This document shows positions 14,158-47,638 of a stretch of 64,000 bases of DNA, in pieces (position 1 is the first letter of the stretch; every line of letters begins with the position of its first letter). Source of the DNA: Nitrospinales bacterium (GTDB lineage: Bacteria; Nitrospinota; Nitrospinia; Nitrospinales; VA-1); contig OZ253496.1 of assembly GCA_965262115.1 (NCBI GenBank), positions 2,528,001 through 2,592,000 of the forward strand, read 5' to 3'. Made by a program: the position numbers and the translations under genes. Below the pieces are notes generated by a model. It did not search any database. It worked only from the letters and a program-made list of their open reading frames with translations, and had not been told where the DNA came from.

Positions 14158-14395
14158 GTGATATTTGTAATATCCCCAACATTAGCCTTCATGCCCGGCA
14201 CGGGTACTTCCCAAGCTTTTACCCTTTCAGGGCGAGACCTTTGCATAAGTCGAAAAATCGAAGAATCGAGATGCTTCGACAAGCTCAGCATGACGATACT
14301 GGGCCATTTTGTCATTCTGAGGAACAAGGTGACGAAGAATCTCGACTTATGCAAAGCTCTCTTTCAGGGCATGAAGGCAAATAAAGAAATATCAC
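14158..14395. repeat. Inverted pair of Z hairpin units, the second interrupted by a MITE
   Basis: GTGATAT..CCTTCATGCCCGGCACGGGTAC (+, 14158-14207) and GTGATAT..CCTTCATGCCCTGAAA[MITE]GGGTA (-, 14219-14395). Confidence 0.7.
14234..14361. mobile_element. MITE copy A (128 bp) carrying two CGTC-type REPs
   Basis: Terminal inverted repeats GAGACCTTTGCATAAGTCGA / TCGACTTATGCAAAGCTCTC; exact 9-bp flanking duplication TTTCAGGGC (14225-14233 and 14362-14370). Confidence 0.85.
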
Positions 14396-44275: not shown

Positions 44276-45055
44276 ATGATTCAAAAAAAAATGAAGCCAT
44301 TCGGCTTGTGGACTGTGCTATTGGCGCTGTTTCTCTCTGCCTGTGGCGCAAATATTGAGGATTGTTTGCAGGATGGAAGTTGTGGTCCCGCCATACAGGT
44401 GGCCAGCCATGACGGGAGCTTGCCGGTGGATCCTTATGATTCTTTTTGGGATGCAGGGCCTGTTGCGGTCGAGGTTGAACTCGGGCCGCAAATGATCACC
44501 AATCCGAAATGGCCAAATCCTTCGACGAAGGAGGTTACCGTGCGTGCTGTTAAAAATTCCAGCGGCATAGCTATCATGCTGGAGTGGAGTGATCCAACTC
44601 GTGATAGCAACTTTGACCACTCTGCGTTATATGTTGATCGGGCGGCGGTGATGTTTCCGATCGTTGCCGAGAAGGAGGCCCCGCTGATCACCATGGGCGA
44701 ATCGGGAAAGCCTGTCAACATCTGGCAATGGAAGGCAGTGGGTGGAGAGAGAGGGCAACCGGGAGTGAGGGACAATCCTGATTCCGGGCTCACTTACCAG
44801 ACCATTGAGGATTTAAACGCGGAGGGATACAGCACCCTGACCGATCAGAACCAGCAGGATGTAAAAGGCTTCGCGGTGTGGAAAAGTAATAAATGGCGTC
44901 TTGTTTTCCATCGATCGTTAACCAATGACAACGCCAATGATGTTCAGTTTAGGCAGTCGGTCTTAATGGCCATCGCGGTTTGGAACGGTTCTAATAAAGA
45001 ATTGAATGGGCAAAAGGGAATTGCCGGCTGGTTGCTTTTGAGGATGTCATCCTGA
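44276..45055 (+). CDS. Lipoprotein with ethylbenzene-dehydrogenase gamma (DMSO reductase type II heme b) domain
   Basis: Lipobox LSAC; LEWSD, DRAAVMFP, ITMG, VNIWQWKA, AVWNG..GQK. Confidence 0.8.
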   Translation: MIQKKMKPFGLWTVLLALFLSACGANIEDCLQDGSCGPAIQVASHDGSLPVDPYDSFWDAGPVAVEVELGPQMITNPKWPNPSTKEVTVRAVKNSSGIAIMLEWSDPTRDSNFDHSALYVDRAAVMFPIVAEKEAPLITMGESGKPVNIWQWKAVGGERGQPGVRDNPDSGLTYQTIEDLNAEGYSTLTDQNQQDVKGFAVWKSNKWRLVFHRSLTNDNANDVQFRQSVLMAIAVWNGSNKELNGQKGIAGWLLLRMSS

Positions 45056-45119
45056 GTTTGTTATGTTCTTCCTAAATATTCATGGCCCGAAGGGACACAT
45101 TGAAGGATCTGGTTTTTCT

Positions 45120-45155
45120 CGTCTTTGCGAGGCGGCGAAGCCAACGAAGCAATCC
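45120..45155 (+). repeat. CGTC-type REP upstream of the GIY-YIG gene
   Basis: CGTC-TTTGCGAG-GCGGCGAAGCCAA-CGAAGCAA-TCC. Confidence 0.8.
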
Positions 45156-45199
45156 AGTTGTTAAGTTTACCGTTGCAACGAGCCTGACCTGCAACCGAG

Positions 45200-45538
45200 A
45201 TGAAAAGAAAACGACCTGCAGTTTATATTATGACCAATAAACCCAACGGAACCCTCTATACTGGCGTGACGAGTGATCTGGTAAAGCGCGTTTATGACCA
45301 TAAAAATGGGGCTGTTCCGGGTTTTACTAAAACCTGTGGTTGTAAGCGGCTGGTCTACTTTGAACTCTGTGATAGCATGGGTAATGCTATTTCCCGAGAG
45401 AAACAGATAAAGTCCGGTTCCAGAGATAGGAAAATAGCGTTAATTGAAAACATGAATCCGAAGTGGCAGGATCTTTATAGCGAATTCTATGATTGTCGTT
45501 GCGAGGAGCCAATGGCGACGAAGCAATCCAGGTTGTGA
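45200..45538 (+). CDS. Small stand-alone GIY-YIG nuclease
   Basis: AVYIM..TLYTGVTSDLVKRVYDHK, LVYFE, AISREKQIK, NPKWQDL. The last ~14 codons are REP-derived. Confidence 0.92.
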   Translation: MKRKRPAVYIMTNKPNGTLYTGVTSDLVKRVYDHKNGAVPGFTKTCGCKRLVYFELCDSMGNAISREKQIKSGSRDRKIALIENMNPKWQDLYSEFYDCRCEEPMATKQSRL

Positions 45539-45703
45539 GGTTTTGTATAGAGAATCCTCCGATGACGAAGTCGTGATAATTCCTCATTAGCCTTTGTGCC
45601 CTGTAAGAGCAAACCCATAGAACCTGGATCGCCACGCTCGGTTCCCTCGCTCGCGATGACGATTCTGTGGGTTTGGCTGTCACCCTGAGCCAAGTCGAAG
45701 GGC
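45494..45703. repeat. Three CGTC-type REPs and a Z unit downstream of the GIY-YIG gene
   Basis: REPs at 45494-45529 (+), 45626-45661 (-) and 45678-45703 (+); degenerate Z at 45573-45611. Confidence 0.8.
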
Positions 45704-45845
45704 TTCGGGTTGCTTCCTCAACCAAATCCCCACCCTCACACAGTATCCCTTGTGATATAGTTCTGATCGGAGAATTTGTTGAGGCATTTAAATAGGTTTT
45801 CTAACTTGTAGTCAAGGAGAGATTTGATCCCTTGACTAAAGGATT

Positions 45846-46566
45846 ATGAAAAAACATTACATAATTGATGAGATTAAGCGGACTGCTAGAGAGAACGGAG
45901 GCAAGCCACTCGGTAAAATGAAATTTGCCAAGATAACAGGGATACAAAATCATAATTGGCTTGGAAAATATTGGGCAAGGTGGGGGGATGCTGTTAAAGA
46001 AGCGGGATATGAACCTAATAAGCTCCAGGGTTTATTATCTGATGATTTTCTAATTGAAAAAATTATTCCTTTTATAAAAGAACTTGGTAAATTCCCTGTA
46101 GCCGAGGAATTAAGAATGAGAGCAAGACACGTTAAGGATTTTCCAAGTCAAAGTGTTTTTTGTCGGGTTGGAAAGAAGCCAATGTTGGCCAAAAAGATAA
46201 TTGAATATTGTGAAAAGAAAGGTGAATTAGAGGAAGTAATAAATATATGCAGACCAATTTTAGTTGTAGATGAACTTGAATCAGATATTCCGGGCAAGTC
46301 TGAACCCGCTGACGGGTTTGTGTACCTCATCAAATCAGGGAGGTACTACAAAATTGGAAAAACTTATGATGTCGGAAGAAGAAAATATGACATAAAACTT
46401 CAGCTTCCAGAAGAAATCAAAGAGGTACAATGTAATACGCACCGATGACCCTAATGGGATAGAAGCATATTGGCATAACCGGTTTAAGGAGAATAGAAAG
46501 AAAGGTGAATGGTTTGTCCTTACCTCTGATGATGTCAAAGTTTTTAAAAAAAGAAAATTTATGTAG
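45846..46566 (+). pseudogene. T5orf172/MUG113-type GIY-YIG protein with N-terminal helical repeats, frameshifted
   Basis: GFVYLIKSGRYYKIGKT. Removing one A at ~46429 gives [28 protein letters not shown] ending at TAG 46564-46566. Confidence 0.8.
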
Positions 46567-46690: not shown

Positions 46691-47638
46691 TTAGTGGTTA
46701 GCCACTTCTGCGCCGGATTGTTTTTCCAGGTTGGCGTGAAATTTTTTCCAGGGGGCTTGCAAGGCGGGAACAAGCTTTTCCTTCAATTCATCCGGGACGT
46801 AGTTGATTTTATCCGCCGGCCAGTCTTCCACATTCCGCACATCCAGGTTTTCTTTTCCGTAAGGGATTTGCAGGGCCTCTTCGAATCCATAAACCAAAGC
46901 GCTTGAATAAACCTTGTGATATTGCTCTTCAATTTCTTCTTCTGAATGCATTCCCTTAACAAGCTGTTCAAACAGCTCCTTGATGATGGGCGCGGCGTGT
47001 TCAATGAAATCTGGGGTCAAGGCGGAGTGCAGTGTGAAGTAGGTGATGAGCACATCCTGCAGCAGAAACTTTAGCTCCGAACTTTCTTTTTTGGGTGGGC
47101 GGGTGTTGATATTCAAAAGTTCCTTGAGGACTTTAATATTGCGGATCATGTCGTAGATGATCGACTCTTCCCAGGTTGCCTCATTCCACACGAAAAAGGC
47201 CCGCACGAAATTGGCTTTTTTCCTGGTGTCCCACATTTGCAGGGCAGTGGTGGGCCGCTCCTTGTTAGAGTAGGGGATGGCCTCTCCCCAACGCGGGTCC
47301 ACCAGGTTCAATCCATAGCGTTTAAAAGTAGTGCAAAATGTTTGCTGATAGATTTCCATCAAGCATTCAAAGTTTTCCACGCTGTTCAGAGGGCTGTTCT
47401 GCGGCAGGTTGACGATGGAATACAGGCGCACGACATTTGTTCTGGCTTGCCCGTCGTCCTGGGCAACCATATAGGAACCGCCCCACATGCCAGCTGTAAT
47501 GGGAACACTGATTTTATGCTGTTGCTTCATTTGTTGGGAAACAGAATCTCCAATGACCTTTAAAAGATTATGAAAATAATAAAGGTTTATTCGATTGTCT
47601 TTGGGATAAAGGTGCCCCGGAAGGATTTTATATTGCAT
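46691..47638 (-). CDS. Hypothetical protein, 315 aa
   Basis: Long ORF with protein-like composition; no family recognised. Confidence 0.8.
   Translation of the reverse strand: MQYKILPGHLYPKDNRINLYYFHNLLKVIGDSVSQQMKQQHKISVPITAGMWGGSYMVAQDDGQARTNVVRLYSIVNLPQNSPLNSVENFECLMEIYQQTFCTTFKRYGLNLVDPRWGEAIPYSNKERPTTALQMWDTRKKANFVRAFFVWNEATWEESIIYDMIRNIKVLKELLNINTRPPKKESSELKFLLQDVLITYFTLHSALTPDFIEHAAPIIKELFEQLVKGMHSEEEIEEQYHKVYSSALVYGFEEALQIPYGKENLDVRNVEDWPADKINYVPDELKEKLVPALQAPWKKFHANLEKQSGAEVANH

Follow-up and report, generated by a model that had tools for sequence, protein, structure and literature searches.

A stand-alone gene for a small GIY-YIG nuclease lies among CGTC-type palindromes in the 64,000-nucleotide stretch of Nitrospinales DNA analysed here (the window), and the question this raises is whether enzyme and repeats belong together as a functional pair. 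The source genome is a single contig of 2.68 Mb, and its nearest named relatives are Nitrospinales and Nitrospina assemblies, with protein identities of 95% and 75–78%. Upstream, an EB_dh-domain gene ends at 45055; downstream, a convergent gene of 315 codons ends at 46691. Between them lie the following features, several of them compared with the orthologous locus L001.

45045–45112, + strand: class-B CGTC-type hairpin, split by a Z element; absent from L001, with an unsplit look-alike at genome position 2204372.
45059–45097, + strand: degenerate Z unit, copy 1, in the loop of the class-B hairpin; a separate insertion element of ~39 nt.
45120–45157, + strand: class-A hairpin, copy 1: a YGTC tag, then a stem of 5 bp with a GA/GAA internal loop and an inner hairpin, then a CCAG tail.
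45200–45538, + strand: gene for an Ssn-type GIY-YIG nuclease of one domain; 96 family-like residues are followed by a tail that stems from a frameshift.
45483–45484, + strand: site of a 1-nt deletion that opens the frame through the downstream repeat, seen by comparison with L001 and sequencing-run contigs.
45494–45531, + strand: class-A hairpin, copy 2, a match to the class-A pattern, overlapped by the read-through tail.
45564–45618, + strand: putative remnant of a class-A hairpin, its degenerate 3′ half, broken up by Z copy 2, as judged by comparison.
45572–45611, + strand: degenerate Z unit, copy 2, from the Z element search.
45624–45661, − strand: class-A hairpin, copy 3, inverted, a C-G stem variant with a GTG loop; the outermost class-A end.
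45678–45706, + strand: degenerate class-B hairpin that lacks the post-stem C; not in L001.

The preliminary description of this DNA had seen four palindromes of a single plan, and their positions hold to within 1–2 nt, but only three are class A and the one at 45678 is a degenerate class B. A fifth palindrome, the class-B hairpin at 45045–45112, had been overlooked.

The open reading frame at 45200–45538 (+) encodes 112 residues with one domain, Pfam GIY-YIG (PF01541, E 1.8e-14), and it carries Y9, Y20, R30, H34, E67 and N86, so the original reading of a stand-alone GIY-YIG protein of about 100 residues with its Y/Y/R/E set intact was correct. Pfam returned PF01541 only, and an NCBIfam search with the protein gave nothing above cut-off. 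The structure model has the GIY-YIG fold, with a pLDDT of 92.6. Searches of the PDB turned up no Ssn structure; the sole solved sequence relative found was 1zg2, of the UPF0213/YhbQ type (E 2e-4), which also ranked first in the fold comparison. That type shares the stand-alone GIY-YIG domain, but is only 29% identical to the window protein. The other stand-alone GIY-YIG gene of the genome (L083), which from its look we take to be of the UPF0213/YhbQ type, is 29% identical; it does not group with Ssn and lacks class-A repeats within 300 bp. A promoter and terminator scan stayed at chance level, and Rfam gave nothing meaningful over 44900–46000 (one match at E 3.4).

The precedent for this gene is the Ssn family. 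Chenal et al. (2025, PMC11893778) describe GIY-YIG proteins of ~95 residues (cd10448) that are associated with NTS/SRM hairpin repeats. According to that paper SsnA, with catalytic residues Y6, Y17 and E64, binds its repeat as ssDNA only, cuts it a few bases upstream, and reduces transformation by DNA bearing the repeat; three further homologues cleave their own repeats, and association of gene and repeat, binding of ssDNA and its cleavage are on record for four homologues. The preliminary description had stated that no dedicated enzyme was established for CGTC-type REPs, which this publication contradicts, and it had proposed the GIY-YIG subfamily as the cognate nickase of CGTC repeats, which is right in outline but not new. 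The core pairing of a GIY-YIG enzyme with CGTC-type repeats is already known, and the locus itself is ordinary because that partner is already in print.

As a stand-in for SsnA we used a 94-aa gene with Y6, Y17 and E64 that lies among eight NTS copies in an N. gonorrhoeae record and is taken as the orthologue of N. meningitidis SsnA. The window protein is 48% identical to it over 89 of its 94 residues without gaps, with Y9, Y20 and E67 in register with Y6, Y17 and E64, and a tblastn search of the window genome with the N. gonorrhoeae protein gives E 1.6e-24. Chenal et al. define homologues of SsnA by E<1e-10 over >75% of the length, with an optional stricter filter of 60% identity; the window protein lies inside the first limit and, at 48%, outside the second. 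Its length of 112 residues (97 in L001) also falls within the size class of Ssn proteins, which are single-domain, shorter than 150 aa and endowed with the catalytic Y/Y/E. In a quick tree of 107 proteins over 96 columns, built without the Neisseria protein, class-A- and SRM-flanked proteins share a branch with an SH-aLRT of 98.

Set beside the Ssn/NTS-SRM systems as the accessible text of PMC11893778 presents them, the locus is alike in its ~95-aa single domain and Y/Y/E spacing, and in having a gene bracketed by oriented YGTC-tagged hairpins with a C-starting tail whose copies are dispersed. It differs in the hairpin, where the near-perfect stem of NTS/SRM gives way to an outer stem of 5 bp, a GA/GHR loop and an inner hairpin that varies; in the protein, which reads S-G-S at 72–74 where the Neisseria orthologue reads K-W-N..W; and in scale, with tens of repeat copies here and hundreds there. 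Our preferred reading, held with considerable confidence, is that an SsnA-homologous stand-alone GIY-YIG gene is bracketed by its own class of CGTC-tagged hairpins, and that its product likely binds these in ssDNA, which it would cleave a few bases away from the tag on the 5′ side.

The tail of the gene bears on whether this particular copy still works. The nuclease frame enters class-A copy 2 because of the 1-nt deletion at 45483–45484; L001, 95% identical, has one extra A at 45483, encodes 97 residues and stops directly 5′ of the repeat. Contigs from three of four sequencing runs (two studies; two of these three runs are possibly the assembly's source) carry the deletion form and the fourth run carries the L001 form, so the frameshift is real but recent. 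That a repeat supplies the last codons of the gene, as first described, is therefore true of the window but is a product of the deletion, and the repeat-encoded tail is outside the nuclease–repeat system. Residue 46 is also a cysteine, whereas 69 of 77 class-A relatives carry a tyrosine there, and elsewhere in the genome a truncated Ssn paralogue (L082, C1:2378945–2379076) consists of the first 46 residues between class-A hairpins, at a site where the relatives G002, G015 and G016 hold a full-length gene. In view of the tail, the Y46C change and the truncated paralogue, the window copy may be decaying. It is conceivable, if the less probable case, that the pairing is real in the family while the gene here no longer yields an active enzyme and its repeats are passive intergenic hairpins, and stem-base mismatches in the flanking hairpin copies and the degenerate elements next to them point the same way. 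Against such a loss of function, the window protein keeps every invariant column of a 108-protein alignment, the frameshift alters only the last two family residues, and the L001 orthologue is full length.

Class-A hairpins follow a plan of YGTC tag, 5-bp stem, an internal loop of GA against GHR, a variable inner hairpin, the second half of the stem and CCAG, with 7–22 nt in the inner part. A pattern search yields 36 genomic copies, whereas each of five simulated genomes yields none. Copy 1 ends 42 nt ahead of the nuclease start codon, and the half-hairpin at 45564–45618 was deduced from intact copies at genome positions 829670 and 1899412 in which Z sits within the hairpin. Folded one copy at a time, none of the four palindromes beats its own shuffles (z −0.35 to +1.09). 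Across 190 distinct copies at homologous loci, retrieved with a pattern that imposed no pairing at stem position 3, that position is T-A in 142, C-G in 41, G-C in three, T-G in one and unpaired in three; it is this covariation, rather than thermodynamic stability, that supports the outer stem. A CGTC or TGTC tag is present in 179 of these 190 copies and in 45 of 45 in the genome, and CCAG is the commonest tail.

The CGTC REPs provide a second comparison. In Di Nocera 2013 (PMC3733652) the Neisseria dRS3 repeats are CGTC-1 REPs, and the accessible part of that paper reports no transposase for CGTC repeats. Class A resembles CGTC-1 to CGTC-4 as described there in the unpaired CGTC/TGTC tag, the A-T base of the stem, the CCA tail, the inverted dimers and the missing adjoining RAYT. 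The published stems are of 8–9 bp with 4–5-nt loops, exceptions being noted, whereas that of class A is bulged and in two parts, so that class A has the tag and the CCA tail but not the 8–9-bp stem with a 4–5-nt loop. The published SRM search string has no match in the window and five in the genome, against 7–14 by chance. Class-A strings were not found in the 14 supplement files of PMC11893778, nothing in which therefore points to an assay of a class-A pair. As far as sequence can tell, class A is a further common type of hairpin that the published SRM motif does not cover. A literature search, thin in its coverage of subscription papers, brought up no description of the class-A hairpin and no follow-up on Ssn. 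It could already figure in the literature under a different name, perhaps as the Rickettsia RPE repeats.

The gene and its hairpins are patchily distributed. The nuclease gene is at this site in two of 30 loci around orthologues of the upstream gene, four loci of which have <1 kb of flank, and three close relatives join window position 45039–45042 directly to 46679, so the window carries an insert of 1.64 kb. Genes of the class-A type occur at at least five different sites within the genus, and homologues of 56–68% identity occur across many phyla. At bracketed loci, an inverted pair with the tags outermost is the commonest arrangement of the nearest repeats (30 of 49 and 31 of 43). The cassette of hairpin, gene and hairpin has likely moved over time.

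All of this also fits a bolder account, which we regard as doubtful: that the nuclease is a RAYT-like mobiliser of the hairpin–gene–hairpin unit, a selfish element that seeds copies of the repeat. This account is compatible with the preferred reading and adds a joining step to it. RAYT REPtrons (TnpA-REP, Y1 HUH, with GTAG REPs or REPINs) are, as far as the sources at hand describe them, alike in having a small nuclease gene flanked by cognate ssDNA hairpins, and gene-less copies of the repeat are likewise spread over the genome. No RAYT/Y1 transposase (PF01797) was found in the genome, which is 94% complete, and this counts in favour of the mobiliser account. The window enzyme, however, is of a different fold, GIY-YIG and not Y1 HUH. 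REPtron chemistry runs through a phosphotyrosine and GIY-YIG chemistry is hydrolytic; GIY-YIG enzymes form no covalent intermediate and cannot rejoin DNA as HUH enzymes do. The insert also includes a second gene, and L001 shares it up to 45640 and then has other cargo. At a second site two of 21 genomes are filled, beginning with a CGTC tag directly behind the upstream gene, and the rest hold unrelated repeats or genes. Comparison of sister genomes bore out patchy presence at several sites but gave no clean junction pair: among 12 loci set against the window genome, and one site in 21 genomes, there was no precise empty site, that is, no filled and empty pair with junctions at the repeat ends. 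These sites are general insertion hot spots; between the EB_dh gene and its convergent neighbour of 315 aa (L084–L113), several relatives carry differing, unrelated genes. Chenal et al. themselves draw the likeness to IS200/RAYT–REP systems and, in the text accessible to us, raise mobility as a hypothesis only (PMC11893778).

The second gene of the insert, at 45846–46566 (+), is nuclease-like too, with an HNH_repeat (PF18780) and a T5orf172/MUG113-type GIY-YIG tail. A frameshift near 46429 splits that tail, and L001 is without the gene.

The preferred reading, that enzyme and hairpins are paired, finds support in other genomes. We sampled the best 80 of 435 related loci with the window protein as query, using the class-A pattern derived from the window genome with its spacer range widened for other loci. 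A class-A hairpin occurs within 300 bp at 67 of these best 80 loci, and 45 loci are flanked by such hairpins on both sides; close to the gene the class-A density reaches 3.7 per kb, compared with 0.07 per kb at distances over 1 kb. Only three of the same 80 match the published SRM string. Hosts of homologous loci include Rickettsia, Bradyrhizobium, Sphingomonas, Gammaproteobacteria, Babeliales and Melainabacteria. Within the window genome, only one of 5,301 ORFs of at least 90 aa has class-A hairpins on both sides, and it is 45200–45538. The enrichment of palindromes around homologues that was envisaged from the start is thus there, as a 50-fold rise in local density.

Within the order, 27 of 61 genomes have a homologue at E<=1e-10. 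All 14 genomes with a class-A-type gene hold class-A repeats, 4–53 each, and matches of at least 59% identity are missing from all 27 repeat-free genomes; these relatives are not independent of one another. Eight relatives with fragmented assemblies have 25–149 class-A repeats and no class-A-type gene that we found, which counts against the preferred reading.

Protein class also goes with hairpin class. We pooled 185 loci: the window query contributed its 80, relatives another 26 once four duplicates were dropped, and a metagenome scan that used an NTS-flanked homologue the remaining 79. Proteins with G73 have class A in 77 of 82 loci and no repeat in five; those with W73 and W77, the W..W form that the Neisseria protein has, are accompanied by SRM in 82 of 87 and by no repeat in five; and those with W73 only have class B in seven of 13, SRM in one and no repeat in five. 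Over the 185 loci the match of motif and class thus has one crossover, with three rows unalignable at the motif, and it stands on a short alignment whose two large protein sets were retrieved with peptide patterns that include the 72–77 motif. On the quick tree the repeat label changes 14 times against 27.8 when shuffled, with none of 200 shuffles as low, so repeat type does go with nuclease phylogeny, as the preliminary description had anticipated, and the match is confounded by kinship: a mere clade marker would give the same picture. In the structure model, residues 72–77 form the turn between the catalytic-Glu helix (60–72) and the next helix (75–85), and they are likely the specificity loop.

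That a generic repair-type GIY-YIG gene merely sits by chance in a hot spot that gathered repeats, as the varied cargo of this site in relatives might suggest, is refuted by the 50-fold local enrichment in unrelated hosts, by the match of protein class to repeat class and by the ORF control, L083 having no such repeat nearby, and it deserves next to no credence.

What is observed, then, is homology to SsnA, the catalytic residues, a gene–repeat association over many phyla, a covarying stem and a near one-to-one match of protein motif and hairpin class. The window protein would most likely act as an endonuclease on ssDNA, specific for the sequence and structure of class-A hairpins. On the model of SsnA its cleavage would be Mg-dependent and strand-specific, about 4 nt upstream of the tag; this distance is expected by analogy from NTS75, which gives a 20-nt product and in which the tag begins at base 25 (PMC11893778). 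The same analogy suggests that the cut would need the tag G and the post-stem C (G26 and C49 in NTS75), which all three class-A copies keep, the post-stem C being missing at 45678. Residues 72–77 may read the stem, in that the bulged stem is matched by small S and G residues and the perfect NTS stem by W..W. In the cell the likely effect would be trimming of repeat-bearing ssDNA, whether incoming DNA or replication or repair intermediates.

A wider synthesis would join these threads, and we think it rather improbable as a whole: Ssn proteins would be co-evolving enzyme–hairpin pairs with a readable code, in which a large S-G-S subclass, spanning Rickettsia and Bradyrhizobium to Nitrospina, targets the bulged hairpin, residues 72–77 set the target, and the cassette is a mobile analogue of RAYT, with a hydrolytic fold, that seeds CGTC repeats, joining being left to host repair. 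Ssn enzymes have been proposed as site-specific ssDNA tools, and class A, together with a six-residue predictor of hairpin class, is a practical addition to them. That class A lies outside the SRM motif suggests that the published association figures are undercounts.

Class B and the Z element complete the picture of the locus. A wider class-B pattern has 76 matches genome-wide, in the window also at 14294, 14311, 51468 and 63287, and class-B repeats outnumber class A in the genome. A search of the genome with the window protein as query found no class-B-type Ssn gene, and a class-B query found no relative among viral contigs. The class-B hairpin at 45045–45112 gives the EB_dh-domain gene its last codons and its TGA (45053–45055); the 3′ end of that gene is replaced by the hairpin (window 45045–45055), and its relatives end otherwise.

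Z is 39–41 nt long, ends in a small hairpin and has 361 copies in the genome at E<0.01. It inserts into CGTC hairpins, into Z itself and in other places. Among full-length copies, removal of Z together with a single upstream base yields an exact empty counterpart for 33 of 149 distinct flank sets, any other offset giving at most three, and Z therefore inserts without target duplication. Z units were first reported on both sides of the gene, and they are there, each within a hairpin, but as a separate element. We considered Z as a component of the Ssn system and rejected it: of its 361 copies just 41 of 228 full-length ones lie in CGTC hairpins by a crude test, and the upstream Z is absent in L001.

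Some further observations touch on the family and its hosts. ComEC and DprA domains occur in the genome and are too widespread to be proof of competence. The records NZ_CP119140.1 and NZ_CP119142.1, of 2.17 Mb and labelled plasmid, resemble whole N. gonorrhoeae chromosomes. The Nitrospinota genomes G007 (L127, L141), G010 (L128, L142) and G048 (L129) have NTS-type Ssn genes, flanked by exact copies of the Neisseria-consensus NTS. In another genome, three Ssn-like matches of equal score at a spacing of 562 bp form a tandem array (G055:C1:634630–636017).
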